This document shows, piece by piece, positions 4,090-48,152 of a DNA stretch of 64,000 bases. This DNA comes from Acidimicrobiia bacterium. GTDB lineage: Bacteria; Actinomycetota; Acidimicrobiia; Spongiisociales; ZC4RG35. The DNA lies in assembly GCA_041751055.1 (NCBI GenBank), contig JBGSYD010000011.1, positions 2,506 through 66,505 of the forward strand, in the 5' to 3' direction. The position numbers and the translations under genes are program-made. The notes under the pieces are model-generated. The model was not told the origin of the DNA, did no database searches, and worked only from the letters and a program-made list of their open reading frames with translations. Each line of letters opens with the position of its first letter. Within the stretch, counting starts at the first letter, position 1.

Positions 4090-4872
4090 ATGGCACGAGC
4101 TATCTGGAAAGGCGCAATCAATTTTGGCTTGGTGACGATCCCGGTGGGGCTTTACAGCGCTACCGACGAGAAATCTCCCAAGTTCAAGCAGTTGCGCAAA
4201 GACGACCATTCAGCGATCAAATACAAGCGTGTCGCCGAAGCCGACGGCAAAGAAGTGGGCTGGGACGACATCGTCAGGGGCTATGAGTTCGAAAAGGGCC
4301 GGTATGTCGTCTTCACCGACGACGAGTTGGAATCAGCGAGCACCCAGGGAAACAAGCTGGTAGACGTGGTCCAGTTCGTCGAAGAGGACGAGATCGACCC
4401 AATCCTTTTCAAGAAGACCTATTACCTCGCTCCGGAGAAGACCGGAATCAAGGCCTATCAGATCCTCGAGCAGGCTCTGGAGTCCAAGGGCCGGGTTGGG
4501 ATCGCCAAAGTCTCCATCAGAGAGAAGCAACAACTGGCAACGATCCGGGCCAAAGATGGGGTCATCGTGATGGAGACCATGTATTGGCCCGATGAGATCC
4601 GCGCCGCCGAATTCGAGGAGCTGGACAGCGAATTCGAGATCAGAAAGGAAGAGGTCGAAATGGCTGCTTCTCTGATCGACAACCTCACTCGACCGTTTGC
4701 CGAGGACGACTACGTCGACCGAACCCGGGAACAAATCGAGGAGCTGGCTGCGAAGAAGGTCGCCGGCGAGGAGATCGTTGCAGTCGACAGCTCACCCGAG
4801 CCCACCAAAGTCATCGACCTGCTCGACGCTCTCAAAGCGTCGGTCGAAGCAACCAAAAAGGCCGCCAGCTAG
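4090..4872 (+). CDS. ku: Non-homologous end-joining protein Ku
   Basis: MARAIWKGAINFGLVTIPVGLYSA...KVIDLLDALKASV, classic prokaryotic Ku. Confidence 0.96.
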   Translation: MARAIWKGAINFGLVTIPVGLYSATDEKSPKFKQLRKDDHSAIKYKRVAEADGKEVGWDDIVRGYEFEKGRYVVFTDDELESASTQGNKLVDVVQFVEEDEIDPILFKKTYYLAPEKTGIKAYQILEQALESKGRVGIAKVSIREKQQLATIRAKDGVIVMETMYWPDEIRAAEFEELDSEFEIRKEEVEMAASLIDNLTRPFAEDDYVDRTREQIEELAAKKVAGEEIVAVDSSPEPTKVIDLLDALKASVEATKKAAS

Positions 4873-5807
4873 CTGTCGGGACCTTCGGTTATCCAATCGA
4901 TAGAACCCGGCTCAGCTACCTCGATGCCTTTGTAGACCGGCGCCCGGAGGTGCCCTTCGTGAGTCCACTCCTTGAATTCGACGTTCACGACGACGCCAGG
5001 CTCGACCCAATGAAGACGACCCGGATACCTGACGGGCGGGTCGAACGGCGTCGAGTCACGACCGATTTCTGAAAGGGCCGGGGTTATGGCGCTGAGGGTC
5101 TGTTCATCGAACCCCGAACCGACGGCGCCCACGAACCTGAGACTACCGCTATCCCACAGTCCGAGAAGGAGAGAGCCAAAGGTCGTCGATCTGCTGCCCT
5201 CGCCCTCGACCCAACCCCCAACAACGGCCCGCATTTGTCGACGAACCGACACCTTGCGCCAATCAGGCGACCGCTTCCCGGAGAGGTAGCGCGAACCCGA
5301 CCTCTTGCCAACGATCCCCTCGACCCCCCGTTCCTTAACCGCATCGAACAGCGCTTTCCCCGAACCACGGGTCGGCGAGGCGCTTACCACCGGTGACGGG
5401 ATCTCCATGTCATCCAGAGCAGCTCGCCGATCCTCATAGGGACGATCGACCAAGCTCTCGCCATTGCGATAGAGGAGGTCGAAGACTACGAAGTTGACCG
5501 AGACCCGTGCGTCGGTGCCCGCTCCTCCAAACCCCGTGCGACGCTGAATCAGAGAGAAACTAGGTCGTCCTTCGCTGTCAAAGGCCACGATCTCGCCATC
5601 CACAACGACGCCTCCGGGGATGGGCAGATCGGCCAGTTCGGGAAATCCGCTCAGAAGGTCGATGCCGCGACGAGAACGGACTCGAATCCCGTCGTCGTTC
5701 GAAACGATGGCGCGGTAGCCATCCCATTTGACCTCGAACCACCAATCATCGCTGTCAAATGGATGGGCCCATTTGGTGGCAAGCATCGGCTCGAATGAGG
5801 GCAGCAT
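4869..5807 (-). CDS. ligD: ATP-dependent DNA ligase, stand-alone LigD/LigC-type ligase domain
   Basis: EPMLA, EVKWDGYR adenylation motif, DGEIV, FDLLY, EGIVGK, VGSGF, HLRAPVYKG; no polymerase or phosphoesterase domain. Confidence 0.85.
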   Translation of the reverse strand: MLPSFEPMLATKWAHPFDSDDWWFEVKWDGYRAIVSNDDGIRVRSRRGIDLLSGFPELADLPIPGGVVVDGEIVAFDSEGRPSFSLIQRRTGFGGAGTDARVSVNFVVFDLLYRNGESLVDRPYEDRRAALDDMEIPSPVVSASPTRGSGKALFDAVKERGVEGIVGKRSGSRYLSGKRSPDWRKVSVRRQMRAVVGGWVEGEGSRSTTFGSLLLGLWDSGSLRFVGAVGSGFDEQTLSAITPALSEIGRDSTPFDPPVRYPGRLHWVEPGVVVNVEFKEWTHEGHLRAPVYKGIEVAEPGSIDWITEGPDS

Positions 5808-14687: not shown

Positions 14688-15430
14688 GGCGCGAAGACCT
14701 TGGTGGCATTCTCCGAGGTAAACGCGGCCACATCGGTTACCGGAAGACCCCAGACGTCAGAAAGTGCCTTGCCGACCAGGGCGACCCACGCCGGCTCGTT
14801 GGGCCGACCGCGATATGGCGGCGGAGCCAGATATGGCGTATCCGTCTCGATCAAGGCCCGTTCCGGTGGGACCAGGGATGCCCCGAGGCGGATCGTCTCA
14901 CCTGTCTCGAAGGCCACCGGCCCGGCGTACGAGAACATGACTCCGAGTTCGAGGAACCGCTTGGTCCATCGCGTCCCGCCTGTCCAACAATGGAGCACGC
15001 TTCTGCTGCCCGCTTCTTTCTCCTGGAGGATCTCGAACACTTCTGAGAATGCATCGCGGCAGTGGACCACCACGGGCAGGTCGTGCTCGATTGCAAGATC
15101 GACCTGCTCTGAGAACGATCGGATCTGGGCTTCGCGTGGCGCGAGATTGCGGTAGAAGTCCAATCCCGTCTCCCCGATCGCAGAAACCAGTGGGGCCAAA
15201 GACTCGATCCGGGACCGCTCGGAGTCCCATCGCTCGGCCTCATGAGGGTGCAGCCCTGCCGTCGCAAGGACTCTTCCAGGGAAGCGCTCACTCAGTTCGA
15301 CAGCAGCTGCCGATGAGGCGGCGTCCACGCCAGGTGCGACCACCCAGTCGACGGCATCGGCTCGACTCAAAAGTTCCTCAGCGTCTCGTTCGTCGAGCTG
15401 CAGATGGCAATGTGTGTCGACCCAAGTCAC
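14684..15430 (-). CDS. tatD: TatD-family hydrolase
   Basis: VDTHCHL, AGLHPH, IGETGLDFY, VHCRDA, LHCW, ETDTPYLAP; likely GTG start at 15430. Confidence 0.92.
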   Translation of the reverse strand: MTWVDTHCHLQLDERDAEELLSRADAVDWVVAPGVDAASSAAAVELSERFPGRVLATAGLHPHEAERWDSERSRIESLAPLVSAIGETGLDFYRNLAPREAQIRSFSEQVDLAIEHDLPVVVHCRDAFSEVFEILQEKEAGSRSVLHCWTGGTRWTKRFLELGVMFSYAGPVAFETGETIRLGASLVPPERALIETDTPYLAPPPYRGRPNEPAWVALVGKALSDVWGLPVTDVAAFTSENATKVFAP

Positions 15431-15485
15431 CGACGCATCACCCACTACCGGCGTTGTAGGCTCGACGGGAAGGAGGAATCTCTGC

Positions 15486-15722
15486 ATGGACAGTGGAATC
15501 GCACGCAAGATTGACGACCTTGGTCGGATCGTCATTCCCGCCGAGACACGAAAGCTGTTCAACATCAGAGAAGGGGATCATCTGTTCATCGCCGTAGAGG
15601 GGGGTTCCATAGTCATGCGGAAGATGACTGACACCTGCACTTTCTGCGGCACCGACGATGGCGTCAAGCAATTCAAGGGCAAGGGGATCTGCGCGGGTTG
15701 CAGAAATCAACTCATCCCCTGA
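15486..15722 (+). CDS. AbrB/SpoVT-type DNA-binding protein with C-terminal Cys4 (Zn-ribbon-like) motif
   Basis: MDSGIARKIDDLGRIVIPAETRK...CTFCG...ICAGC; strong AAGGAGG RBS. Confidence 0.88.
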   Translation: MDSGIARKIDDLGRIVIPAETRKLFNIREGDHLFIAVEGGSIVMRKMTDTCTFCGTDDGVKQFKGKGICAGCRNQLIP

Positions 15723-16549
15723 TCGTCAAGCAGAGCCTGATAAATGTCGCGACGGCCCGTTCCCAGGTCTCCTGCAACCATTCTGGCGGCTTCGGATAGA
15801 GACGTCCCGGAGGCAACCAGCCGCTTCGCCGCCTCCACTGCAACGCCCAGGTCTGCTCCGACCGTATTCGCTGGCCCGATGACGAGTGTGAGTTCGCCTT
15901 TGACCTGACGCGGTCGCCATTGCTCGACTGCTTCGCCGAGGGTCCCGACCCAAACCTCTTCATGCAACTTGGTCAGTTCCCGGTTTATCGAGATCTGCCT
16001 GTCAGCCCCGAGCACCTCGAGAAATTCCTCGAGGTCGCCGATCAGGCGATGTGGCGTGACAAACCAAACGACTGGCCGGTTTTCCATGGCGGTGGCCTCG
16101 ATCCGTGTGCGCCTCTCCTTGGCCTTCTTGGGCAAGAAGCCCTCGAACACAAAACGTCCGCCTTGGAACCCGGATAACGCCACGGACATGGTCACCGAGC
16201 TCGGACCGGGAATGACCGTAACTTTCATCCCGGCTTGTCGTGCCAATCGAACCGCCACAGATCCAGGGTCGGAGATTGTTGGCATACCGGCATCGGAGAC
16301 CAGCGCCACTTTCATGCCGGCCCGAAGATCATCGACGAGCATTTCGGTACGTTCCGACTCATTGCCAGCGAATAGGGACCTGGTTTTCACCTTCAAATCG
16401 AGGTGGTTCAAGAGCTTGGCCACCCTCCTCGTGTCTTCGGCATAAACGACATCAACCAATGACAGTGTCTTCGCCAAACGATGCGAAATATCGCCGAGGT
16501 TCCCGATCGGCGTGGCACAAACAAACAATTGACCCGGATCACTCATCAA
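15707..16549 (-). CDS. rsmI: 16S rRNA (C1402-2'-O)-methyltransferase
   Basis: LFVCATPIGNLGDI, AEDTR, VSDAGMPTISDPG, FEGFLP, RELTKLHEE. Confidence 0.95.
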   Translation of the reverse strand: MMSDPGQLFVCATPIGNLGDISHRLAKTLSLVDVVYAEDTRRVAKLLNHLDLKVKTRSLFAGNESERTEMLVDDLRAGMKVALVSDAGMPTISDPGSVAVRLARQAGMKVTVIPGPSSVTMSVALSGFQGGRFVFEGFLPKKAKERRTRIEATAMENRPVVWFVTPHRLIGDLEEFLEVLGADRQISINRELTKLHEEVWVGTLGEAVEQWRPRQVKGELTLVIGPANTVGADLGVAVEAAKRLVASGTSLSEAARMVAGDLGTGRRDIYQALLDDQGMS

Positions 16550-16856
16550 ACGTCACTATCGCACCGAGGCCTGGGACCAGACGTCCCGCTGGGAACTCGA
16601 TGACGTCCCAGGCTTCGGGGAAGAAAGCGATCCGGTTCGGGCGCAGATCACGTATCTCCAAGACTTCTCCGGATGGGGACGTCGATACGGCTCTGATATG
16701 TCTACTGAAGCCGATGGTGTGGATGCTCCTGGTCCGGATCAAAAGGCCGTTTTTTGCACTAGGGGAACGCATTCCGAGGAAACGATCCGCAAAGGTTTCC
16801 GCTTTTGCCACGGTGGCACCGTCCCATCCCGGCGACCGCAATTTCACAAGCCTCAC
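16539..16856 (-). CDS. DUF192-like protein
   Basis: AETFADRFLGM...GLLI...SIHTIG pattern. Confidence 0.65.
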   Translation of the reverse strand: MRLVKLRSPGWDGATVAKAETFADRFLGMRSPSAKNGLLIRTRSIHTIGFSRHIRAVSTSPSGEVLEIRDLRPNRIAFFPEAWDVIEFPAGRLVPGLGAIVTFDE

Positions 16857-16916: not shown

Positions 16917-18221
16917 CTAGCTTTTCAGCGAATCGCGGATGCCTTCGCCCACTGCCGGAATGTCCGAGGCGATGAAGGCCAACTGGTCGTTGATGACCTC
17001 AACCCAGGCAAAAGCGGCATCGGGGATATTGGTGGTTGCGTACTCCAAAAACGCAATCCGGGTTTCTTCTAGATCCTGGCCGGTGTCGCCCTCATAGAGA
17101 ATCAAGAACGCCGCATTGGTTCCGTCGTACCAGAGGGAATAACGGTCCCCTCCCCAGCCATCGGCGGCAGTGAGAGTCGCCTCTTCGTCCATGACTCCCC
17201 CAAACATGACTCTTAGACCAAACTCACCCCAGACCGAGTTTTCCTCGAGGGTGTATCCGGGAACTGTGATGTCCGGCATTCGAACATCTATTGGCAAATC
17301 TCGCCCGTAGTCATCTGGAGTGATTATCTGCTCGGTCGAGCCAGGAAGGTCCAGCAGCCGACCGTATGCCTCGTCGACACTGTCCCAGCCATCGCTGAGG
17401 TATAAACCCTGAACAAAAGCAAGCCCGGTGTCATATGGGAAAATCAGCGTCTCCTGGAGAAACCGTGGTGCAGCGTCGAGCTGACCGGTGCCTGCCTGGA
17501 GGGCCTCCGCAAAGAACTCGCCCAGCTCGGTCTGGCTCAGGGTCTGCAGATACAGGACCTCGTTGAGGCTGGCGTCGCCCTCGATCAGTGCCTGATACGC
17601 CGAAGCTTCGTCATATCTCTGCTCATCGAACATTGCCTGGTACCCAGCGTGGAAATCAAAATTCTGGTCAGTAAGGGAGTGGGTCAACTCGTGGACCATG
17701 GTCGCTTTCTGAACTGGGCTGAAGCCGTCATCCCGGATTGGCACTACCAGCTCCCCCGTCTCGCCGTCATAGAAACCCGCTACCTGCTCGCCGTAGAGAT
17801 CCGACAGGAGGGTTGCCAGGTCTGCAGTCTTGCTGAGAAGGCCAAGCAATTGATAGAGGGCCTCGTCAACCGGAAAATCCTCGGCTTCCTCTTCGATCTG
17901 GGCCCTGACCCGCGCCTCCAGTTCGGCTTCGGTGACAACAGAGATCAGGGGTGGCTCGATGAAACTGAGCTCACGAAGGTCCTGCGTCAGGTTTACCAGG
18001 GCAAGCAACTCGTCTCGGACTTCCTGCGGAAGACCCTCCGTGCCAGGCAGCTCGGTGATGGGTGGCGGGCTCGTTGTGGTCGATGCGGTCGGGTCGGTCT
18101 GGTTTGCGGTCGTTGTCGAAGTCGTAGCTCCGGCGAGCGTTGTGTTCGACGTGTTGGACTCACACCCGCTCACGATCAGTATGAGGGCGACAAGAAGAGA
18201 GAAGCGACGAAGAAACAGCAT
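16917..18221 (-). CDS. Secreted lipoprotein with HExxH motif (putative Zn metallopeptidase)
   Basis: Lipobox LIVSGC, Thr-rich linker, GFYDGET, VHELTHSLTDQNF, ALIEGDA, FPYDTG, GWGGDRY. Confidence 0.65.
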   Translation of the reverse strand: MLFLRRFSLLVALILIVSGCESNTSNTTLAGATTSTTTANQTDPTASTTTSPPPITELPGTEGLPQEVRDELLALVNLTQDLRELSFIEPPLISVVTEAELEARVRAQIEEEAEDFPVDEALYQLLGLLSKTADLATLLSDLYGEQVAGFYDGETGELVVPIRDDGFSPVQKATMVHELTHSLTDQNFDFHAGYQAMFDEQRYDEASAYQALIEGDASLNEVLYLQTLSQTELGEFFAEALQAGTGQLDAAPRFLQETLIFPYDTGLAFVQGLYLSDGWDSVDEAYGRLLDLPGSTEQIITPDDYGRDLPIDVRMPDITVPGYTLEENSVWGEFGLRVMFGGVMDEEATLTAADGWGGDRYSLWYDGTNAAFLILYEGDTGQDLEETRIAFLEYATTNIPDAAFAWVEVINDQLAFIASDIPAVGEGIRDSLKS

Positions 18222-18286
18222 CGGACAACAGGTTACCGGCGAGGTCGGTAATAACTCTGTAGGTCAGGTGGACCATCGTTCCAGAT

Positions 18287-18312
18287 CATCCGGATCGAGG
18301 GGCGGCGACGAA
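18287..18312 (+). promoter_or_regulatory. Putative SigK-type ECF promoter of heliorhodopsin
   Basis: CATCC-N17-CGAA ending 8 nt before the ATG; same spacing and GGGCGGCG spacer as the motif at 23655-23680. Confidence 0.6.
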
Positions 18313-18320
18313 GAGAAGTT

Positions 18321-19100
18321 ATGACATCGAGCACAGTTCCACCTCAAACACAGCCAAGAACATCACGTCTCCGCTGGTACAACCTGCTTATGGGTTTGCT
18401 TCATGCCGCCCAAGGCTTCGCTGTTTTGGCTTTGGCCAACGACTTCACACTCCCGGTAATTGCGACCTACATGGATGGGCCTCCCGGAGCCGGAACGCCA
18501 TCGGTGGAGCCGGTTTTCGATCTAAGGATCGCATGGGGCGTCGCGGCTTTCCTCTTCCTGTCCGCAATCGCGCACATCGTTATTGCGTCTCCGGGCGTCT
18601 ACACCTGGTATCGCCGCAACCTGGAGAACAACCGCAACTACGCGCGATGGATCGAATACTCGCTGTCGTCCTCGATCATGATCATCTTGATCGCGATGCT
18701 CGTCGGCATCGCCGATATCGCGGCTCTCATTGCTCTCGCCGGCGTCAATGCCTCCATGATCCTGTTCGGCTTGCTCCAGGAGAAGTACGAAAACCCGGGC
18801 CGGGACGTCAGTTGGATTTCATATTGGTTTGGCGTTTTGGCCGGTGCCGTACCGTGGCTGGCAATAGCGTGGTACTTGTTCAGCCCTGGATTCGACGCCA
18901 ACCCTCCCGGATTCGTCTACGGGATATTCGTTTCGCTGTTCGTGTTCTTCAACATCTTCGCAATCGTCATGGTGCTGCAATACAAGAAGGTCGGTAGATG
19001 GGCCAACTACGAATTTGGTGAGTCGACGTATGTGCTGCTGAGCTTGCTGGCGAAGTCCGCCCTCGCCTGGCAGGTGTTCGGCGGCACCCTAGCTGCGTGA
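18321..19100 (+). CDS. heR: Heliorhodopsin
   Basis: 7-TM protein with LHAAQG, AHIV, RWIEYSLSSSIM, NASMILFG and the retinal-binding lysine in LSLLAKSALAWQVF. Confidence 0.95.
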   Translation: MTSSTVPPQTQPRTSRLRWYNLLMGLLHAAQGFAVLALANDFTLPVIATYMDGPPGAGTPSVEPVFDLRIAWGVAAFLFLSAIAHIVIASPGVYTWYRRNLENNRNYARWIEYSLSSSIMIILIAMLVGIADIAALIALAGVNASMILFGLLQEKYENPGRDVSWISYWFGVLAGAVPWLAIAWYLFSPGFDANPPGFVYGIFVSLFVFFNIFAIVMVLQYKKVGRWANYEFGESTYVLLSLLAKSALAWQVFGGTLAA

Positions 19101-19101
19101 C

Positions 19102-20442
19102 TCATTCCCCTCGAGCAGCCTCGTAAGCCTCAATGGCGCGGAGGCGGGCCATGGCATGATCGACCATCGGCTCGGGGTAGTCCTTGCCGAGAACAAAGTT
19201 GTAGCGCGCCAGCTCGTCGCTTCCCCATCCGGCGGGTGAGTGGATTTGGGGAGCGGGTAACCCGGCGAGCTCAGGCACCCATCGTCTGATATATGCACCG
19301 TCTGGATCGAACTTCTTGGATTGGGTCATTGGATTGAAGACGCGGAAGTAAGGGGCTGCATCGGTGCCCACACCGGCCACCCATTGCCAGTTGCCCACGT
19401 TCTGCGGAGTGTCGCCATCGAGCAGGTGGTGACGCAAAAACCGTTCACCGATCCTCCAGTCGACAAGAAGATCCTTGACCAGAAACGAAGCCACGACCAT
19501 ACGGATGCGATTGTGAATCCAACCCTCCCCCTGCAACTGCCTCATTCCGGCGTCAACGATCGGATATCCGGTTCGACCTGATTGCCACGCCGCGATCTGA
19601 TCAGGGTCGTTGATCCACAGCATGGATTCGTAGTCGAAGCGCATTGGCTTGTCCACGCTGTGTGGCCATCTGGCCAAAACGTGGGCGTAGAAGTCACGCC
19701 AGGCCAGCTGTCGTCGAAAGGCAATCCGACCCGGGGTACTCCCTGACGTCCGGTCGAAAACCAGCCGGGGGCCGATCCACCCGTACTTGAGGTCAATTGA
19801 CATATGGCTCGTCGAATCGAGGTCCGGCCGATCCCGTTCCTTGTGGTAGGAATCAATCTTGTTCAGGAAGTCGATGAAACGAGTTGATGCACCGTCTTCA
19901 CCGGCGTGCTCAACTTCTGGAACGTCCGGCAAACCATCACCCACATCGGCGAGCACCCGCGCTTTGCCAGGATCTCCGACCGGGACTACTGGCCGATCGG
20001 ACCATGAGCGGAAGAAGGGTGTGAACACCCGATAGGTGTTTCCGCTACCGGTCAGGATGGATCCCGGTGGATGGATGTAGTTGCCGTCATGGAGATCGAG
20101 GTCGACAAGCCGGCTGATGCGGTCATCCCGACTCGAGCCAAATGGAGTGACGTCACGATTGGCATGGACGATATCGGCCCCTACCCGTGCCACGACGTCA
20201 GGCACCACCCTGGTGGGGTCTCCCCGAAGGACCAGGAGTCGGCCTCCTTGATCGGACAGCCTGGTATCGAGCGATTTGAGCCCTGCGATCAGGTAGGAAC
20301 GGCGGCGGTTCGAAACCGCGTCGTAGAGGTCGGGATCGATTACGAATAGGGCACATACCTCATCGGCTTGCGTGCCCGCCGCCCAAGCAGGATTGTCTTC
20401 CAGTCGGGCATCCCGACGAAACCAAACCACGGACCTCCCCAC
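19102..20442 (-). CDS. phrB: Deoxyribodipyrimidine photolyase (CPD photolyase/cryptochrome family)
   Basis: VWFRRDARLEDNPA, QLAWRDFY, TGYPIVDAGMRQL, GWIHNRIRMVVASFL, NVGNWQWVAG, PYFRVFNP. Confidence 0.93.
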   Translation of the reverse strand: MGRSVVWFRRDARLEDNPAWAAGTQADEVCALFVIDPDLYDAVSNRRRSYLIAGLKSLDTRLSDQGGRLLVLRGDPTRVVPDVVARVGADIVHANRDVTPFGSSRDDRISRLVDLDLHDGNYIHPPGSILTGSGNTYRVFTPFFRSWSDRPVVPVGDPGKARVLADVGDGLPDVPEVEHAGEDGASTRFIDFLNKIDSYHKERDRPDLDSTSHMSIDLKYGWIGPRLVFDRTSGSTPGRIAFRRQLAWRDFYAHVLARWPHSVDKPMRFDYESMLWINDPDQIAAWQSGRTGYPIVDAGMRQLQGEGWIHNRIRMVVASFLVKDLLVDWRIGERFLRHHLLDGDTPQNVGNWQWVAGVGTDAAPYFRVFNPMTQSKKFDPDGAYIRRWVPELAGLPAPQIHSPAGWGSDELARYNFVLGKDYPEPMVDHAMARLRAIEAYEAARGE

Positions 20443-20445
20443 TTC

Positions 20446-20625
20446 CTAACCGCGCTCCGGAGGGTCGGGGAAGAGTGTGTTGGTTCGATACAGGTAGTCC
20501 CCGTATTCGGGGCCTCGTCTGACAATCGACTCTTCCAACGTACCGGACCCGGTCACTTTGAACAAGGATCCATGACCGAAACGGCGGAGATCCTCGGGCA
20601 TAACCTGGACGATCGGCGCAGCTGA
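20446..20625 (-). pseudogene. C-terminal remnant of a DUF1295 (steroid 5-alpha-reductase-like, Rv0446c-like) gene
   Basis: ...SLFKVTGSGTLEESIVRRGPEYGDYLYRTNTLFPDPPERG* resembles the DUF1295 terminus (LLxxVSGxxLLE...Y.xY..RT..FFPxPP); a -1 shift joins it to ISAVSVM; no upstream TM region. Confidence 0.55.
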
Positions 20626-20638
20626 ATCCTGAGCTGGC

Positions 20639-21808
20639 TCAATTGCGCAGCGCCCTCCTGTAGAACTCAATTGTCTTGTCGGCGACCGCCTCGATTGTGT
20701 AGAACTCGGTGAACCTGTCCTTGGCAGAGTCAACCAAAGACTTCGCGAGGTCTTTGTCCACAAGCACGCGCGAGATGGCGGCAGCCATTTCGTCCGGAGC
20801 CTCCAACGACACCAGCATGACCACCGGTGTCTCGCCGCCAGCCACTTCGCGAACTGACGGGATATCACTCGCAACGACAGGGACTTCGAGGGCCATTGCC
20901 TCGATCAATACGCCAGGAGACCCCTCTGTTCTCGACGGAACCACCACAACATCGGCAGCACACATCAAGTCGGGCACGTCGGTCCTGTGACCCGCGAATG
21001 TCACGGCTTCGTCGAGCCCGCCGGTGGCCGCGGTCCGTCGAAGGTTGGCTGAGGCCGGACCCTCCCTGCCCGCAATCAAGAGGTGGGCTTCGGGGACGCA
21101 CTCCCTCACACCGGCAAAGGCTGATAACAGAAGATCGAGACCTTTCATGTGGTAATGCCTGCCAGCTGCCATAACAAGTGGCACTTGATCGCCTAGTCCG
21201 AGCGAACGCCGCACGTCGGCCCGTCTTCCCGGAGAGTTAGCGCCGAGCATGCCAAGGTCCCGACCCCGCGGAATCACCTCGACGCGGTCCCGGGGAACTC
21301 GCAGTCGCGTGGCCATTAGATCGGCGCTGCTTGCCGACACGGCATGAAACCTACGGACCAACCTGGCCGTTATTGCGTCCGTCAAGTGCGCGGCTCGTAC
21401 TTTCCAGCGCCGGTACTCAGGGTTGGACAGGTGTTCGGGGCCGTATAACTCGGTGACGAAGCTGGAAACCACAGGTATTCGAGCGAGTCGCGCTGCGACC
21501 CGGGCGGTCACATCGGCTTCGAACAATATCGTGTGAACAAGGTCCGGACGCAGCGACCTGAGCAATTTGAGTCCTCGAAATACGGCCATGATGCGACCCC
21601 CGCCACCTGCGATGCTGTGCAATGAAACTCCACTAGCGTCGAGGCTTCCGCCCACCCCCACACGGTCCACCAGGTAGGCCACGTGGAGATCGATGCCGTC
21701 CTTGACCAGGTAGGGAGCCACCATCGCCAGAGACTGTTCGGCACCGCCAACAGCAAGGCTATCGATGACGATCAATATTCTGAGCCGAGCATTTATCGAA
21801 CGTTTCAC
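20639..21808 (-). CDS. GT4-family glycosyltransferase
   Basis: IDSLAVGGAEQ, KGLDLL, PSRTEGSPGVLIEAMA, VVASDIP. Confidence 0.9.
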   Translation of the reverse strand: MKRSINARLRILIVIDSLAVGGAEQSLAMVAPYLVKDGIDLHVAYLVDRVGVGGSLDASGVSLHSIAGGGGRIMAVFRGLKLLRSLRPDLVHTILFEADVTARVAARLARIPVVSSFVTELYGPEHLSNPEYRRWKVRAAHLTDAITARLVRRFHAVSASSADLMATRLRVPRDRVEVIPRGRDLGMLGANSPGRRADVRRSLGLGDQVPLVMAAGRHYHMKGLDLLLSAFAGVRECVPEAHLLIAGREGPASANLRRTAATGGLDEAVTFAGHRTDVPDLMCAADVVVVPSRTEGSPGVLIEAMALEVPVVASDIPSVREVAGGETPVVMLVSLEAPDEMAAAISRVLVDKDLAKSLVDSAKDRFTEFYTIEAVADKTIEFYRRALRN

Positions 21809-22776
21809 GCCTGGTGCTCATGCCTTCGGACTCGTTGAGCTAGATCGGACATGGTCAGGTTTTCGAGGAGGCCCTCGTCGATGCCCTTGCGGGCTTCCTC
21901 AAACAGAACTTCGAAGGCTCGGCGCGATCTCCGCGGGTGCCCCGCGAGATTGTGGCTGTGGAACCACATGTGGAAGAGCGAAGACGTCCGAACTGCGCCA
22001 CGGAGGCGTCGGCGCACGACCCGACCCCAGAGTTCATCGCCCAGCCGGTCGGCGGTTTTCGAACCGGGATTGAAGAGGTACGTCTGAGGGATCGCCACCA
22101 GATCGCCCTTGATCTCGGGGCGGAATGCGCCGGAACGAAGGGGGCGAACCCGATCCATAGCTAGGGCCATCTTCTTCAGTGGGGGCGACATCTGTGTGAA
22201 ACGATCGGGTGTGTGACTCCGATAAGCCAAGAATCCCGCTTCGGCGAGAAGTCCCAGATGCCCTATCGAGTTGCGCGGAAACACGTATGACATCAGGTTC
22301 AGACCGCTCTCCGCGGCAGCGCTCAAGCAAGCCTCGAGATCGGAGCGAAAGGCCTCCTCAGTGCAACCCTCGTCGCCGGCGATGACATGCCCGAACGAGT
22401 GCGAGGCGAGCTCGTGTGGTATGTGGCTCTCTCTGATCCTCGCGACCAGATCAGGGCCATACCAGGTGGGGTCGTCGGTGAGCGACGTGCCGGGGTCGAG
22501 GTCGTACCAGTCACCGGCGAACCACGAATAATCGGGCCGCACTATTTCCGGATGTTTCATTCCGGTGGATTGTCCACATCGGGGCAAGAAGAGATGGCCT
22601 ACCACGGCCCAAGTCGCCGAAATCTCGTACTCTTCCATCACCTCGAGCAATTCGGCCACCACCCGCCGCTCTTCGAGATAGGGCGACCTGTCATGTGGTG
22701 AACCATGGTGAACTGCGCCCCACGACATCTCGAGATCGATCGATATTACGAAGGCGGCTGCCCCATCTAAGACCAT
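21805..22776 (-). CDS. Polysaccharide deacetylase family protein
   Basis: FVISIDLEMSWG, ATWAVVG, ELASHSFGH, SYVFPRN, FHMWFHSHN. Confidence 0.8.
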   Translation of the reverse strand: MVLDGAAAFVISIDLEMSWGAVHHGSPHDRSPYLEERRVVAELLEVMEEYEISATWAVVGHLFLPRCGQSTGMKHPEIVRPDYSWFAGDWYDLDPGTSLTDDPTWYGPDLVARIRESHIPHELASHSFGHVIAGDEGCTEEAFRSDLEACLSAAAESGLNLMSYVFPRNSIGHLGLLAEAGFLAYRSHTPDRFTQMSPPLKKMALAMDRVRPLRSGAFRPEIKGDLVAIPQTYLFNPGSKTADRLGDELWGRVVRRRLRGAVRTSSLFHMWFHSHNLAGHPRRSRRAFEVLFEEARKGIDEGLLENLTMSDLAQRVRRHEHQA

Positions 22777-22986
22777 AAAAAGTCACTGTACCGACGGCCT
22801 TTAAATACCCTGGCCTGGTGCCCCATGGCAAGGGGCCCCGGACATGCGTGAGGATTGCGGACCGCGGGCAAAAGGTTTCAGCGGCGATCTTCCCGGGGCC
22901 AGTGTATGCAACCGCCGAGAGGAGTTCGGGGCGGCGGCATGCGACTGTCACCGATCGCACCCTGACTGTGAATGAGGTTTATCCCC

Positions 22987-23541
22987 TCAACCTGCTGCAA
23001 GGTCGGACATCGAGACTGCAAGTCTTTTCATTCCAGTGCGAATTCGGCTTTTCACCGTACCTTCGGGTGCTCCTAACCGACGAGCAACCTCGACGTAGCT
23101 CAGGCCCTCGAGGTAGGCCAGGGAAATTGCCTCCCTCTCGCCGTCCGGGAGGTCGTTCAGAGCGGCTCGCACATTCTCGGAGATCGTAAGGGCCCAAACG
23201 TCGTCGACGACGTCAGAATGATCCCGGTCAGGTGGTTTAAGCTCCCGCCGGGACCGAGCGACTTCGGAGCGGACGGCGTCGACCGCCCTGCGATGGGCAA
23301 TAGTCACCAGGAAGTTGCGAAGCGATCCGCGTCTGGCATCAAATCTTTCCGGTGCGTCCCAAAATCGAAAGAACGTGTCCTGAACCACGTCTTCGGCGAG
23401 CGTTGGATTGTGAAGCACCCTTCGAGCAACCGATCTGACCGCTCCTCCGTGTTCTCCCATCACGGTCTCCATTGCGGCCTCATCGCCCCTCAAGACAAGG
23501 TCGGCTAGCGCCTTGTCGCGTTCATCAACTCCGACCATCAA
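22987..23541 (-). CDS. ECF RNA polymerase sigma factor, SigK-like
   Basis: AEDVVQDTF..FW..PERFD..RGS, AHRRAVDAVRSE, LAYLEGLSYVEVA..LG...GTVKSRIR; the AHRRAVDxVR signature is shared with mycobacterial SigK. Confidence 0.85.
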   Translation of the reverse strand: MMVGVDERDKALADLVLRGDEAAMETVMGEHGGAVRSVARRVLHNPTLAEDVVQDTFFRFWDAPERFDARRGSLRNFLVTIAHRRAVDAVRSEVARSRRELKPPDRDHSDVVDDVWALTISENVRAALNDLPDGEREAISLAYLEGLSYVEVARRLGAPEGTVKSRIRTGMKRLAVSMSDLAAG

Positions 23542-23653
23542 ACCTCGAATCGAGACCCACCGATGCTAATGGTGGAGGGCCGGGACCAGCATTTTGGCGG
23601 TACCGACTAGGGCACGATTAACGGGCTTGTGTTTGGAGGCACCAATTTATTTC

Positions 23654-23680
23654 CCATCCGACGCACTGGGCGGCGCCGAA
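23654..23680 (+). promoter_or_regulatory. Putative SigK-type ECF promoter
   Basis: CCATCC-N16-CCGAA ending 6 nt before ATG 23687. Confidence 0.62.
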
Positions 23681-23686
23681 CCAGAC

Positions 23687-24061
23687 ATGATGGGTAACAG
23701 AATCGCAATCATCGGCACCGGTATTTCCGGCCTCGGGGCAGCCTGGGGGCTCCATGCAGATAACGAAATCACCGTTTATGAAGCGGCCGATCGTTTGGGC
23801 GGGCACTCCAACACCATCAAGGTCGACACGCCTCTGGGAGAAACGTCCGTCGATACCGGTTTCATTGTCTATAACAATGAGACCTACCCAAATCTTTCCC
23901 GGCTATTTGCCAAACTCGAAGTCGCGACCGAGCCCAGCGACATGTCCTTCTCATATTCAGTTGACGGCGACTTCGAATACGGGGCAAGCCTTTCTCTGTG
24001 CGAGGCTGGGTTCCGGCTGGGCCGGATAAATGTAGAACAGTGGAGTTTCTCCCGACCATGA
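23687..24061 (+). pseudogene. Truncated FAD-dependent oxidoreductase (Rv0449c/UfaD-like amine-oxidase family)
   Basis: IAIIGTGISGL.AAW.L, EAADRLGGHSNT, VDTGFIVYN..TYPNL, SDMSFS; similarity ends near 23990 after about 100 aa, whereas intact family members are >400 aa. Confidence 0.8.
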
Positions 24062-24098
24062 AGCGATACTCCCGCTTGTTCAATATCGTGACCAATCC

Positions 24099-25100
24099 AT
24101 GATCGGCAACGACACACCGGATCGCCTCGCCGCACGCCTCGGCGTGATGGCGGCTGCGATTGCGGGTGACTCGGGCGGGCTCTATCAACTGGTTGCAAGG
24201 CTGTTGGACGACGGCGTGCCCCTCGACGTCATTCTCTTCGACATTCTCATTCCCACCGAAAGAGATGTGGGCCAGCGCTGGCAGCAGGGTGACGTGCTCA
24301 TCTCGGAGGAACATGCCGCCACAGCGACCATGGAGACGGTTGTCTCCCTGATCGCGGGATCCTTCGATCCATCGGATAACGGTCCCCGAATAGTGATTGC
24401 GGCAGCCGAAGGAGATGACCATTCTCTTCCGGGGCGCCTGATTGCGGCCCACCTGCTTTTCCTCGGCTACCGGACGGCATACCTGGGTGGCAACGTCAAG
24501 GCCTCAGATCTGGCGGAATATCTCCAGGGCGAACCGGCTGATGCAGTTGTTCTCTCTTGCGCCCTGCCCACACATCTGATTGGTGCGCGTTCGTCGATCC
24601 AGGTAAGCCATCATGCAGGGGTCCCTGTTGTCGCCGGGGGCAATGGGTTTGGCCCGGGTGGGGTCTGGGCCACGCCGTTGGGGGCAGACGTATGGGTTCC
24701 GACTCCCCGGCAGGTGTCAGAGACTCTGGAATCGTGGAATCCGGACCCCGCGACTTCGGAAGCCCGAGCAGTTGATATGACTTCCGACGTCGCCGCACTC
24801 ATCAATCGCCGGATGAGAATCGTGTCATCCGCCCAGGACCACGTCGCGGCCGGAGGCAATCAATACCCCGATCGGGAAACCACCGACGAGATCGATCATC
24901 TTCTGAGTGCTGTGGGAGCGGCGATGTTTGTTGGCGATTCGGCTCTGTTGTCGGCCGAAATCAAATGGCAACAAGCGATGCTCGCTGCTCACAGCAGAAC
25001 CGACTCGGATCAAATTGTCGAGGCGATGGTCGCCGCTCTGGAGTTGGAATCGCCCCTGGCTGCTGAGTTCATGCAGGCGACAATCCGGGCCAAATCCTGA
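24099..25100 (+). CDS. Cobalamin (B12)-binding domain protein, CarH/AerR-like W-x9-EH, no DNA-binding domain
   Basis: Four-helix cap with VGQRWQQGDVLISEEH, Rossmann B12 domain EGDDHSLPG...YLGGNV...VVLSC...GG, extra helical C-terminal domain. Confidence 0.85.
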   Translation: MIGNDTPDRLAARLGVMAAAIAGDSGGLYQLVARLLDDGVPLDVILFDILIPTERDVGQRWQQGDVLISEEHAATATMETVVSLIAGSFDPSDNGPRIVIAAAEGDDHSLPGRLIAAHLLFLGYRTAYLGGNVKASDLAEYLQGEPADAVVLSCALPTHLIGARSSIQVSHHAGVPVVAGGNGFGPGGVWATPLGADVWVPTPRQVSETLESWNPDPATSEARAVDMTSDVAALINRRMRIVSSAQDHVAAGGNQYPDRETTDEIDHLLSAVGAAMFVGDSALLSAEIKWQQAMLAAHSRTDSDQIVEAMVAALELESPLAAEFMQATIRAKS

Positions 25101-25122: not shown

Positions 25123-26118
25123 ATGATGGAGAACGCATGGAGCCGTCGTCTGATAACGGTTCCAGCCGTTTATCTCAGCTTTGCAGCCCTGACTCTTGCC
25201 ATGCCCATAGTGATGACGGTGGCGGCAGTTACCGATCTCGGCAGGTGGTTCAGACGGCGTAAGCCAGCCATTGCCATGCGCATTACGGTGTTCGGCTGGT
25301 GTTACCTCTTGGGTGAAACGTGTGCGGTGGCCGCCATGGCCCTGGCAGCGTTGTTGGGGCGCGACCTATCAATCAAAGCCACCTACCGATTGCAGCAGGT
25401 CTGGCTCAACTGGAACTTCGATATGCTCAGTCTGGCCTTCAGTCTGAATTTCGAGGTCGAAGGAACCACGGAGATCACCCCAGCGCCATTTGTGCTGCTC
25501 TCCCGCCACGCCTCACTCATCGACACGATGCTCCCTGGCCGATACGTCGTCGGGCCCCACGGCCTGAGACTTCGCTATGTGTTGAAAAAGGAGCTGCTGA
25601 TCGACCCAGCTCTCGACATAGGCGGCAACCGCCTCCCCAACTACTTCATTGACAGGGGAGGCAGCGCGGCGCAGGAACTCGATGGTATCCGTCACCTCGC
25701 TTCCGGATTGGGAACCCGAGACGCCGTACTGATATATCCAGAGGGGACACGCTATTCAGACGCAAAACGCAAAAAATACGTCGACCGAATCACCCGGCGG
25801 GGTGGACCCGCCGCTGACGTCGCCTCCACCTACCGGCACGTGCTGCCGCCGCGCCCGGCCGGGACGCTTGCGATTCTCGACGTATCGGAGGCCGACGTGG
25901 TGATCCTGGCACACCGTGGATTGGAAGGCTTCGCGACCCTTGCGGACATGTGGGACGGCGGTCTGGTGGGGTCAACTGTGGAAGTCCTGTTTCGCCGGAT
26001 CCCGAAATCGCAAATTCCCTCTGATCGGGATTCACAACAGCTGTGGCTGTACCAGGTCTGGGCCGAGGTCGACCAATGGGTCAATGACACAGCCGGGCGG
26101 ATTCGCCGTATTCGATAG
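25123..26118 (+). CDS. Lysophospholipid / 1-acyl-glycerol-3-phosphate acyltransferase family protein
   Basis: RHASLIDT (HxxxxD), LKKEL, FIDRG, IYPEGTR, LPPR; N-terminal TM helices. Confidence 0.85.
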   Translation: MMENAWSRRLITVPAVYLSFAALTLAMPIVMTVAAVTDLGRWFRRRKPAIAMRITVFGWCYLLGETCAVAAMALAALLGRDLSIKATYRLQQVWLNWNFDMLSLAFSLNFEVEGTTEITPAPFVLLSRHASLIDTMLPGRYVVGPHGLRLRYVLKKELLIDPALDIGGNRLPNYFIDRGGSAAQELDGIRHLASGLGTRDAVLIYPEGTRYSDAKRKKYVDRITRRGGPAADVASTYRHVLPPRPAGTLAILDVSEADVVILAHRGLEGFATLADMWDGGLVGSTVEVLFRRIPKSQIPSDRDSQQLWLYQVWAEVDQWVNDTAGRIRRIR

Positions 26119-26123
26119 TTGGG

Positions 26124-26197
26124 TGGAGCTGAGGGGATTTGAACCCCTGACCCCCTGATTGCGAACCAGGTGCTCTGCCAGGCTGAGCTACAGCCCC
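26124..26197 (-). tRNA. trnA: tRNA-Ala (anticodon CGC)
   Basis: Reverse complement GGGGCTGTAGCTCAGCCTGGCAGAGCACCTGGTTCGCAATCAGGGGGTCAGGGGTTCAAATCCCCTCAGCTCCA. Confidence 0.95.
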
Positions 26198-26249
26198 AAT
26201 CGTTGTGGGACGGTGATTGTATCCCTGCTCGGTCTATCAGCCAGTCGAG

Positions 26250-41593: not shown

Positions 41594-41986
41594 ATGGAGG
41601 CCACCTACAAAATCACGGTAGAGGCAGACGCCGACACCGTTTTTACCCATATGACGGACCCTGCTCTGCTCAGCAAATGGTGGCCGTCGGGAGCCGAGAC
41701 GGATCTCCGGGTTGGTGGCACATATCACCTTTGGTGGGAGGGGCCCGATTGGCACCTCCGCGGTGAGTACCTGGAGATTGATCCTCCTAACAATGTGCGA
41801 TGGACCTGGAAATGGGACCACGATGAGCTCCCACCCCGTGAGGTCGCGATCACCATCACAGGCAGAGTCGACACCACCGAGATCGAAATCATTCATGAAG
41901 CAGGCTCCCCCGAGGAGCGAGATTCCTACCTCGAGGGGTGGTCTCATTTCTTGGGCATCCTGGGAGATCTCCTTGAAAATCGGTAG
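41594..41986 (+). CDS. SRPBCC/AHSA1 (activator of Hsp90 ATPase-like) domain protein
   Basis: VF...TDP.LL.KWW, DLRVGG.Y, GEYLEIDPP...WTW, GW..FL..L. Confidence 0.88.
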   Translation: MEATYKITVEADADTVFTHMTDPALLSKWWPSGAETDLRVGGTYHLWWEGPDWHLRGEYLEIDPPNNVRWTWKWDHDELPPREVAITITGRVDTTEIEIIHEAGSPEERDSYLEGWSHFLGILGDLLENR

Positions 41987-42899
41987 CCAACTTGCGAACC
42001 GGGTTCGCTCCCGGATCATCGATGGCGCGGCCGGGCCCTTTCGTCACACGGAGTACCCACTGAGCAACAGTCTCGACTATCCCGGCGACCCTGGACTCCA
42101 TGGCCCGGGGTCGGTGACTTGGTCGGTAATGGGAGATGTTGCGACATTTGTCGGCGGAATACGCGGCCTCTTGATCCAGGCGGCCCATCCCGAAGTCGTT
42201 GCCGGTGTCGGGGATCACTCCCGCTACAGAGAGGATCCGCTTGGGCGCCTCTCTCGCACATCTGCGTATGTCACCGCCACCTCATATGGTGCGATGCCTG
42301 AAGTCGCGCGTGCCGTGGCAACCGTCAGAAGGATTCATCAGAGAGTGAATGGCGTGTCCGAGCGCGGGGTCCCCTATAACGCCGACGACCCCGGCTTTTC
42401 AGCGTGGGTTCACAACGCCCTGACGGACTCATTTTTAGTTGCGAATCAGGTCTATGGCGCAACCAAGCTGGGACCATCCGACGCCGACCGGTTTGTCTTG
42501 GAACAAACCAGTGTTGGCGCTCTTCTGAATGCCAACCCGATGCCTGACAATGCCGGGGCTCTCGAGGATTGGATTGTCAACCACCCGGATTTGGCTGCCA
42601 GCAAGGCCACAGAAGAAGCGGTCGAGTTCCTGCGACATCCTCCGTTGACTACCGGTGTACGCCTCGGCTACAAGGTCCTGCAGGCCGCGGCAGTGGCCAC
42701 CCTTCCGGCACGTATAAGATCGATCCTCGGCCTGGAGACCACTCCGGGTGCGATAGCCGCGGGGCAAGCTGCGATCCGGGGACTGCGTTGGGCGTTGGGA
42801 TTTTCACCAACATGGCATCTCGCCCTCCTACGCACCGAATCTCCGGTCCCGCTCGGCAAGTTCGTTCAGCCCCTTCCGGTCAACATCGAACAGGGCTGA
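41973..42899 (+). CDS. MpaB/DUF2236 oxygenase family protein
   Basis: DPGL.GPGSVTW.V.GD, LLIQAAHP.V.AGV.DHS, RL.RT, HQRV.G, WVH..L.DSF; likely TTG start at 41973. Confidence 0.85.
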   Translation: MKIGSQLANRVRSRIIDGAAGPFRHTEYPLSNSLDYPGDPGLHGPGSVTWSVMGDVATFVGGIRGLLIQAAHPEVVAGVGDHSRYREDPLGRLSRTSAYVTATSYGAMPEVARAVATVRRIHQRVNGVSERGVPYNADDPGFSAWVHNALTDSFLVANQVYGATKLGPSDADRFVLEQTSVGALLNANPMPDNAGALEDWIVNHPDLAASKATEEAVEFLRHPPLTTGVRLGYKVLQAAAVATLPARIRSILGLETTPGAIAAGQAAIRGLRWALGFSPTWHLALLRTESPVPLGKFVQPLPVNIEQG

Positions 42900-45640: not shown

Positions 45641-45954
45641 CCCGCCTCTCAACCCACGTGCTCGATGTAGGAGCCGGGAAACCCGGTGCGGGGGTCGAAG
45701 TCACGCTCGAGCGCGAAGACAACACACAATGGCTCCCGCTGCACACGGCCCACACTGATGCCGACGGTCGTGTCGCAGATTTGGGAACCGCTCTCGGCTC
45801 AGGGACCTACCGAGTCACATTTGATACCGGAACCTACGGCAACTCGCTTTTCTCGAAGGTGCAAATCGTGGTGACCTTGTTTGACGACCAGGATCACTAC
45901 CACATCCCCCTTCTCCTCAGCCCATTCGGCTTCACAACGTATCGAGGAAGTTGA
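45637..45954 (+). CDS. uraH: 5-hydroxyisourate hydrolase (transthyretin-like)
   Basis: LSTHVLD...GKPG, HYHIPLLLSPFGFTTYRGS C-terminal signature. Confidence 0.95.
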   Translation: MTRLSTHVLDVGAGKPGAGVEVTLEREDNTQWLPLHTAHTDADGRVADLGTALGSGTYRVTFDTGTYGNSLFSKVQIVVTLFDDQDHYHIPLLLSPFGFTTYRGS

Positions 45955-45955
45955 G

Positions 45956-46774: not shown

Positions 46775-46778
46775 CTCG

Positions 46779-48110: not shown

Positions 48111-48152
48111 CGTGGCGCAGACTCTAGGTGGGTAGGTACCGTCCATCCTCTA

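Follow-up and report, generated by a model that had tools for sequence, protein, structure and literature searches.

The region analysed is a 64 kb window, i.e., the whole stretch of 64,000 bp, on contig JBGSYD010000011.1 of an Acidimicrobiia bacterium (assembly GCA_041751055.1). Open reading frame (ORF) listing, tRNA search with ARAGORN, and Pfam and NCBIfam scans were carried out over the full window. A block bounded by rsmI and tRNA-Ala(cgc) carries genes for a heliorhodopsin (HeR), a photolyase, an extracytoplasmic function (ECF) sigma factor resembling SigK, and a B12-binding protein related to photocobilins (Table 1). These genes are considered here as parts of a putative SigK-type regulon in which the B12-binding protein might connect sigma factor activity to light. 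A first-pass annotation, made from the sequence without database searches, had listed a HeR, a photolyase, a B12 protein with a W-x9-EH motif, a SigK-like ECF sigma factor and a truncated UfaD-like oxidoreductase; the Pfam, NCBIfam and tblastn results identified all five as real. The ARAGORN and ORF scans also bore out its placement of the block between tRNA-Ala and rsmI, a slot that recurs in the related locus L025.

Sigma factor, B12 protein, heliorhodopsin and remnant operon

The sigma factor contains regions 2 and 4 (PF04542 and PF08281), and its best PDB match was Mycobacterium tuberculosis SigK (4nqw, 7.7e-24), compared with 1e-13 for RpoE. The score against the NCBIfam SigK subfamily was 142 bits, below the cutoff of 226, so that "SigK-like" is a fair description and not proven membership. 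In the SigK family (ECF18/19), two cysteines are conserved, C133 and C183 in M. tuberculosis SigK (PMC7509140); the translated 184-aa sigma factor contains no cysteine. No RskA-like anti-sigma homologue was found anywhere in the 64 kb window, and no SigK-type autoregulatory motif precedes the window's sigma gene. A sigma-A-like -10 element (TAGCAT) was noted by eye ~45 nt upstream of the annotated sigma start.

The best solved relatives of the B12-binding protein were those of the Saccharothrix photocobilin (PDB 8J2W/8J2X), matched with 4.8e-41 over residues 11-304, and the Acidimicrobiaceae photocobilin (8J2Y) was also among the closest. Photocobilins combine a CarH-like B12 module with a C-terminal photoglobin domain that binds biliverdin (PMC10979010; photoglobin paper PMC8717448). 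Light alters their quaternary structure, and they act via partner proteins, including the control of enzymes (PMC10979010). Pfam detected PF02607 (B12-binding_2 four-helix bundle) and PF02310 (Rossmann B12 domain) in the window protein. An AlphaFold2 model built from the orthologue alignment (predicted local distance difference test score, pLDDT, 95.3) begins directly with the helical bundle, which is followed by the Rossmann B12 domain and a C-terminal five-helix globin-like photoglobin domain. In Foldseek comparisons, this model gave a template modelling (TM) score of 0.83 to 8J2W over 333 columns and of 0.82-0.84 to 8J2Y. Pfam and NCBIfam revealed no helix-turn-helix or MerR-type DNA-binding domain, the CarH match being limited to the B12 module. 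W61-x9-E71-H72, D106-x-H108 (E/DxH, with the His as lower ligand) and W290 were invariant across 24 orthologues, W290 being the kept equivalent of Trp296 in the photocobilin SasPcob, and the published light signature is represented by GxxW, EH and GxxH. By its modelled fold, the protein is a stand-alone photocobilin homologue and a photoreceptor candidate that may bind adenosylcobalamin and biliverdin. The "three chromophores" of the first-pass annotation are too low a count in principle, since characterised photocobilins also bind biliverdin.

The HeR matched PF18761 over the whole model (5e-100, 334 bits, model positions 1-242 of 242) and the NCBIfam equivalog NF038020 with 325 bits (cutoff 100), and was 48C12-like at 1e-77. 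Alignment to the 48C12-like chain PDB 9ljj_A (numbering as in 6su3) showed that the equivalents of the counterion Glu (E107 of 48C12) and the Schiff-base Lys (K241) are kept and that RWIEYSL and SLLAKSALAWQ are conserved.

The remnant ORF between the sigma and photocobilin genes was identified by tblastn of the window with the intact operon proteins of L003. In that locus, as annotated by Pfam, an operon opposite the sigma gene runs from an amine-oxidase/UfaD-like gene through DUF1365 and CMAS (cfa-like) to the photocobilin gene. The window ORF joins residues 17-117 of the oxidoreductase (71% over 101 aa, to 23992) in frame to a CMAS tail at 23990-24055, which corresponds to the last 22 residues and is 77% identical to residues 367-388 of the L003 CMAS. 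The UfaD-like remnant of the first-pass annotation is therefore an N-terminal amine-oxidase/UfaD-like piece at 23687-23992(+). Its second remnant, assigned there to a DUF1295 gene, is the tail of a CMAS/cfa-type methyltransferase; the DUF1295 identity was rejected because the intact L003 operon has no DUF1295 gene and the remnant matches CMAS. As read from this alignment, an in-frame deletion of ~3.4 kb took the rest of the oxidoreductase gene, DUF1365 and most of CMAS. The promoter site and the photocobilin and acyltransferase genes were left in place around it. The acyltransferase gene starts 22 bp after the photocobilin stop codon, a gap short enough that it probably belongs to the photocobilin operon.

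Table 1. Features of the block and its boundaries, in window positions. PWM, position weight matrix; CPD, cyclobutane pyrimidine dimer.
Feature	Position	Strand	Basis or remark
rsmI	15707-16549	-	block boundary on one side
Small ORF	16539-16856	-	
Hvo_1808-family surface protein	16917-18221	-	
SigK-type ECF promoter-like site before HeR	18285..18316	+	strict pattern, PWM, same site in relatives
Heliorhodopsin (HeR), 259 aa	18321-19100	+	PF18761, NF038020
CPF-family photolyase (class I CPD-like)	19102-20442	-	PF00875 + PF03441
GT4 glycosyltransferase	20639-21808	-	Pfam, NCBIfam
Polysaccharide-deacetylase-like gene	21805-22776	-	weak Pfam match only
SigK-like ECF sigma factor, 184 aa	22987-23541	-	sigma regions 2 + 4, best matches SigK
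Second SigK-type promoter-like site, before remnant ORF	23653..23684	+	pattern, PWM, orthologous position in relatives
Remnant ORF, 124 aa, Rossmann/amine-oxidase N-terminus	23687-24061	+	tblastn with L003 operon proteins
B12-binding protein, stand-alone photocobilin-type candidate, 333 aa	24099-25100	+	PF02607 + PF02310, 8J2W/8J2X
PlsC/LPLAT-like membrane acyltransferase	25123-26118	+	PF01553
tRNA-Ala(cgc)	26120-26198	-	ARAGORN; other block boundary

Linkage, promoter motif and neighbouring genes

To collect related loci, an alignment-based scan with one genome per species was used, which gave 80 Acidimicrobiia loci with photocobilin orthologues that were then searched with the window proteins. 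A single-sequence locus search with the B12 protein had returned one irrelevant Burkholderiales match only, and the alignment query was used instead. The relatives of the window proteins were Acidimicrobiia without exception, and protein identities among the related loci ranged from 40 to 85%, so these loci are not near-identical copies of one genome. A sigma orthologue (55-68% identity) was found in 37 of the 73 photocobilin loci having at least 1.5 kb upstream of the photocobilin gene. It was nearly always divergent from that gene, either 83-220 bp off or with only the fatty-acid operon between them. The pairing of sigma and photocobilin genes was kept through three gene arrangements and through loss of the anti-sigma gene (12 loci and the window). 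HeR was present in 20 of the 80 loci, in 13 of which it is the next gene 3' of the photocobilin gene and has the same orientation, and the acyltransferase in 11 of the 80. In L019/L082 and L025, the module has the window's surface-protein and rsmI–tatD genes as neighbours, and in L025 it is likewise placed between tRNA-Ala(cgc) and rsmI. Co-occurrence in related genomes, which the first-pass annotation had set as the test of its proposal, was thus observed for these genes (sigma 37/73, HeR 20/80).

An RskA-like protein with an HxxxCxxC zinc motif is intact in 23 sigma loci, where its gene overlaps the end of the sigma gene by 4 bp; it is of full length (about 219-243 aa) in 12 loci and a stub of 67-85 aa in 11. 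Remnants were found in 2 loci, and the gene is absent in 12 loci plus the window. The stubs have no sensor domain and always stand beside a photocobilin. Over the species, these proteins form a degradation series from the form with transmembrane and outer domains (full length in L006 and L007) through cytoplasmic stubs (L045, L050 and L060) and remnants (L003 and L078) to absence, and the intact proteins in the 23 related loci indicate that the window's lineage once had an RskA-like anti-sigma factor. Among the checked loci, the sigma gene has its own SigK-type site only where the anti-sigma gene is kept, or in L051, where a contig end hides the position. A ~309-aa protein encoded directly 3' of the anti-sigma gene in L016, L022 and L075 looked MpaB/Lcp-like by eye.

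The shared promoter motif was first spotted by reading the divergent intergenic regions, where copies are oriented towards the oxidoreductase gene and, in many cases, also towards the sigma gene. It has the form tCATCCG-N16-CGAAt, with two high-scoring copies in the 64 kb, each ending 6-9 nt before a start codon. The HeR site is ATCATCCG-N16-CGAAG, with the ATG 8 nt after CGAA, and the remnant-operon site is CCCATCCG-N16-CGAAC, with ATG codons 6 and 9 nt after CGAA. Promoter-like sites so near to start codons predict leaderless transcripts. The two sites scored 26.0 (HeR) and 21.0 (remnant) with the PWM. When the window sites were left out of the PWM, the scores were 25.3 and 20.0, and no other site on either strand exceeded 8.7; a weak third site scoring at least 8 is located at 46399, far from the block. 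Sites scoring at least 17 numbered 2 in the window vs. 0.07 in shuffles. In the related loci (1.23 Mb), there were 82 such sites vs. 1.85 in shuffles, i.e., a ~40-fold excess, whose weight is reduced by partial circularity, since the PWM was trained on strict-pattern sites. The strict pattern ATCC-N17-CGAA had 6 matches in the window vs. 4.0 expected, two of the six being the HeR and remnant sites; the 8-base pattern by itself is not enriched, and the signal comes from where the sites lie and from the extended PWM. Scanning the block for generic sigma-70 promoters and terminators was uninformative.

Before the HeR genes of the photocobilin loci, the motif stands 8 nt from the ATG in 17 of 19 assessable cases, and the other two are one-mismatch variants. 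A second, independent set centred on HeR contains 16 HeR genes that share at least 71% identity with that of the window; 14 of them are preceded by the motif and the other two by a CGTA variant. The motif-bearing HeR genes include loci without a sigma or photocobilin gene within 8 kb. In the same set, Chloroflexota and Nanopelagicales HeR genes lacked the motif, as did most of the other HeR loci. The HeR site of L003 (302-377) is in tandem, two copies of GACATCCGATCGGACCGGGCGCTACGAAC lying 44 bp apart with the downstream copy at the usual distance from the ATG.

The motif also precedes the intact oxidoreductase–DUF1365–CMAS operon and, in loci keeping the anti-sigma gene, the sigma gene. Further motif-bearing genes in relatives are the SRPBCC–SDR (short-chain dehydrogenase/reductase), DUF4397, acyltransferase, epimerase-like and small membrane-protein genes; in each of L003, L007 and L023, a SigK-type site of its own lies immediately before the start codon of the acyltransferase orthologue. 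An SDR of ~306 aa is encoded directly 3' of HeR, or after a motif-bearing SRPBCC (Polyketide_cyc2) gene, in the HeR-centred loci L083-L089 and L099, and also in L003, L006, L012, L019, L025 and others. Its N-terminal motif is VTGATGGIGLETA, and its best PDB match was an uncharacterised mycobacterial SDR, with protochlorophyllide reductase also among the matches. This SDR of relatives could supply retinal from retinol; the 64 kb window contains no homologue of it. A secreted DUF4397 protein (~266 aa) with a SigK-type site ~55 nt before its start is encoded in L019/L082, L025, L002, L005, L012, L022, L037 and L039, in several of which a sortase-like gene is nearby. This protein may represent a cell-surface branch of the putative regulon, loosely like the SigK-controlled secreted proteins of mycobacteria.

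The SigK-type nature of the motif was judged from 80 mycobacterial sigK loci read directly. Their synteny is oxidoreductase–DUF1365–CMAS–(~0.9 kb)–sigK, in agreement with the first-pass annotation, which had placed the fatty-acid genes beside sigK in mycobacteria. The Acidimicrobiia N17 PWM had zero matches in the mycobacterial loci, where the same motif occurs with a 16-nt spacer: [AG]TCC-N16-CGAA (CCCATCCG..GGCTCCGAATA) stands directly before the oxidoreductase start in 42 of 45 sigK loci. SigK has been reported to regulate the genes of the sigK locus (PMC4105308), and SigK-binding sites have been reported as conserved among Actinobacteria (PMC7509140). According to the latter paper, M. smegmatis is without sigK-rskA. 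The shared motif and synteny support an actinobacterial SigK-type regulon that is homologous to the mycobacterial sigK locus and includes HeR, as had been proposed from the sequence alone.

Linkage and motif are both conserved in relatives to a degree far above what chance would give. If the genes had no functional link and were chance neighbours in a rearrangement-prone slot with fortuitous motif matches, the strict pattern would be expected not to be enriched in the window, as is the case, and the block has indeed been rearranged, deleted and inserted into. Such an explanation is highly improbable and is already contradicted by the comparative data: both high-scoring sites are on the correct strand and end 6-9 nt short of a start codon, their arrangement recurs in dozens of species, and shuffles contain ~40-fold fewer sites.

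The photolyase has two strong Pfam domains, PF00875 (N-terminal) and PF03441 (FAD-binding domain 7), and remains below the NCBIfam cutoffs (PRK10674, 348 bits vs. 506; TIGR03556, 331 vs. 885). It can be assigned to the CPF family, the class I CPD substrate class being no closer than "like" from the sequence. In Rhodobacter, phrA belongs to the sigma-E regulon, and the first-pass annotation had joined HeR, photolyase, B12 protein and sigma factor in one co-regulated three-chromophore island with the photolyase under the same sigma factor. The photolyase does abut HeR, with 1 bp between the ORF ends, and a HeR that binds and aids a photolyase has been reported (PMC9769723). The two genes are convergent, so no shared transcript is possible; the PWM scan of the window found no site scoring at least 8 near the photolyase on either strand, and photolyase neighbours are rare in relatives (5 of 80 photocobilin loci, 4 of 80 HeR loci). 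By every available test, the photolyase appears to lie outside the regulon, although a protein-level contact with HeR as in PMC9769723 is possible by analogy. Two unrelated genes also break up the block, and co-regulation of the whole island is accordingly unlikely.

These are the GT4 and deacetylase-like genes (2.1 kb together), which overlap each other by 4 bp between the photolyase and sigma genes and had been left out of the first-pass annotation, as had the PlsC-like acyltransferase gene. Their best NCBIfam matches were PEP-CTERM/XrtA-system families, far below cutoff. No homologue of either was found in the 80 related photocobilin loci, which marks the pair as a lineage-specific insertion and not a part of the module. 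With two unrelated envelope genes inside, a housekeeping core region around it and ordinary composition, the block is not the compact light island that had been envisaged. Horizontal acquisition of the block as an island was likewise considered and rejected, given an ordinary GC content all through the block, flanks made up of housekeeping genes and inheritance of the module across the clade.

Outside the block, the genes are of housekeeping type and include ksgA, tatD, a glmU-like gene, moaC/moeA, typA, uppP and those of purine catabolism. The purine-catabolism cluster (44147-49511) comprises an allantoicase–OHCU decarboxylase fusion, DUF6986 and an amidohydrolase. Convergent neighbouring genes for Ku and an ATP-dependent DNA ligase (4090-5807) form a non-homologous end-joining pair, and an MpaB/Lcp-family oxygenase gene is located at 41712-42899. 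A small AbrB/MazE-fold gene (15414-15722) lies between tatD and rsmI, overlaps both, and has the same position in L019/L082 and L025.

A possible light input to the sigma factor

Judged from sequence comparison, the region is read as a local, partly eroded copy of a SigK-like ECF regulon conserved in an Acidimicrobiia clade, with the photocobilin possibly coupling the sigma factor to light; a probability of about 55% is assigned to this reading. On the comparative data, the sigma factor very probably recognises tCATCCG-N16-CGAAt promoters near start codons. One window promoter would drive HeR, and the other an operon that once started with UfaD-like, DUF1365 (UfaO-like) and cfa/CMAS-like fatty-acid-modifying genes and, after the ~3.4 kb deletion, consists of the 124-aa remnant, the photocobilin gene and the phospholipid acyltransferase gene. 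The photocobilin has no output domain and may link sigma activity to light by protein-protein contact, either with the sigma factor directly or via the short RskA-like anti-sigma factor of relatives, and light or photo-oxidative conditions would then switch on HeR and membrane-lipid functions.

Several observations point to such a coupling. The photocobilin gene is the most persistent neighbour of the sigma gene through the three arrangements, and it persists where the anti-sigma factor is a sensor-less stub or gone. In the window, it has a sigma-dependent promoter, as is usual for anti-sigma factors, and its characterised relatives signal through protein-protein contact. With the RskA-like anti-sigma factor and the self-activating promoter of the sigma gene both gone, the photocobilin is the only candidate regulator left at the window locus. 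By analogy, light gating of the sigma factor by the photocobilin is plausible. The more specific proposal that the photocobilin is the light-sensing regulator of the sigma factor, acting as or through an anti-sigma factor, with HeR as the most conserved output beside lipid enzymes and the SDR, is put forward tentatively. If true, control of a sigma factor through protein-protein contact would be shown for a B12/bilin photoreceptor for the first time. It would also place the function of HeR inside a light or photo-oxidative membrane-protection response with furan/cyclopropane-type fatty acids, an acyltransferase and a retinal-supplying SDR.

The same regulon might instead respond to oxidative or singlet-oxygen stress, as in SigK–RskA or sigma-E–ChrR, with the photocobilin being only an output and the window sigma factor constitutive. 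Most relatives keep the HxxxCxxC RskA-like anti-sigma factor whose gene overlaps the sigma gene by 4 bp, which favours a stress signal, and the photocobilin gene is distal in a sigma-dependent operon, both in the long arrangement and in the window. A photocobilin that is only an output could modulate another partner in light, i.e., the lipid enzymes, the acyltransferase or HeR. Its position directly upstream of HeR in 13 loci would suit such a role, published photocobilins control enzymes (PMC10979010), and HeRs are reported to act through binding of partner proteins (PMC9769723, PMC11109279). Against this alternative stand the sigma–photocobilin pairing, which outlives the three arrangements and, in 12 loci as well as the window, the loss of the anti-sigma gene, and the stubs of 67-85 aa without a sensor domain, which always stand beside a photocobilin. 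The alternative is regarded as rather unlikely.

Some points weigh against the regulon with its light coupling through the photocobilin. In the B12 protein, the Pro of GxxxP in the published light-responsive B12 signature is replaced by Lys, and the biliverdin-coordinating Asp270 of SasPcob corresponds to Glu264, Glu being typical of the clade; AbPcob has His at this position yet responds to red light (PMC10979010). As many as 36 of the 73 photocobilin loci, mostly with more distant orthologues, have no sigma gene nearby. Conversely, an ECF-centred scan of metagenome contigs, which yielded mostly generic ECF sigma factors, found only two orthologues of the window sigma factor (50-56% identity), both with an anti-sigma gene and without a photocobilin gene within reach. 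The window sigma gene lacks the motif and so may simply be constitutively expressed. That the sigma factor reads the motif is suggested by the autoregulatory placement of the motif in relatives and by the mycobacterial parallel, and the adjacency of sigma and photocobilin genes would equally fit a photocobilin that is a regulon member with another partner.

All parts of the proposed regulon are of known kinds; the new elements are HeR as a conserved target of SigK-type promoters, the sigma–photocobilin pairing and the graded loss of RskA. A full-text search of open-access papers found none of these three elements described, and no literature linking HeR to a sigma factor, B12 or a photocobilin. 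Published leads on the physiological role of HeR are single partner proteins in single organisms. Across a whole Acidimicrobiia clade, one identifiable sigma factor has HeR as its most consistent target. Relatives of this sigma factor in mycobacteria and Rhodobacter govern a membrane-lipid and photo-oxidative stress response, and it is habitually paired with a photocobilin, a member of a newly described class of B12/bilin photoreceptors. HeR thereby gains a testable regulatory context, that is, when it is made and what for.

Comparison with known systems

The mycobacterial SigK–RskA system (Rv0449c–Rv0444c, mpt70/mpt83) has the closest sigma homologue and shares the FAD oxidoreductase, DUF1365 and CMAS neighbours, with a near-identical motif directly before the oxidoreductase gene, and many Acidimicrobiia relatives of the window also encode an RskA-like anti-sigma factor. 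It differs in the spacer between ATCC and CGAA (17 nt in Acidimicrobiia and 16 nt in mycobacteria), in the cysteines and RskA that the window lacks, and in that the Acidimicrobiia targets include HeR and the sigma gene is paired with a photocobilin gene.

In Rhodobacter sphaeroides, sigma-E–ChrR (RSP1091-1087) likewise comprises an ECF sigma factor and a zinc-type anti-sigma factor over a UfaD-like, DUF1365 (UfaO) and cfa-like gene set whose products modify the acyl chains of membranes (PMC7380195). There, UfaD and UfaO (DUF1365) make furan fatty acids, and the product accumulates on deletion of chrR (PMC7380195). A photo-oxidative stress response would be the overall logic common to both systems. 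The sigma factors belong to different ECF lineages, as judged from the RpoE and SigK matches (1e-13 vs. 7.7e-24), the window photolyase has no motif, the window's fatty-acid genes are deleted, and Rhodobacter has no counterpart of HeR or the photocobilin.

The HeR–photolyase pair of Trichococcus flocculiformis (PMC9769723) resembles the window in that the genes are adjacent. In the window, the genes are convergent, the photolyase has no shared promoter, and the adjacency is sporadic in the clade.

SasPcob and AbDPcob (8J2W/8J2X/8J2Y) share the three-domain fold with the window B12 protein over its full length (TM 0.83), together with the same W61, E71-H72 and H108 numbering and the W296 equivalent, and SasPcob has the same stand-alone architecture. 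The window protein is unlike the characterised photocobilins in the Asp270 to Glu264 change and the missing GxxxP proline. The contexts published for photocobilins are STAS/SpoIIE partner switching, GGDEF domains and two-component genes; no pairing with either an ECF sigma factor or HeR is described among them.

B12 light sensors cooperate with an ECF sigma factor in the light response in Streptomyces LitR–LitS and in Myxococcus CarH/CarA with CarQ–CarR, and the LitR and CarH/CarA sensors are MerR-type DNA-binding repressors. Unlike these, the window photocobilin has no DNA-binding domain, so any control by it must be via protein-protein contact, and in this respect it is more like the AerR/PpaA antirepressors.

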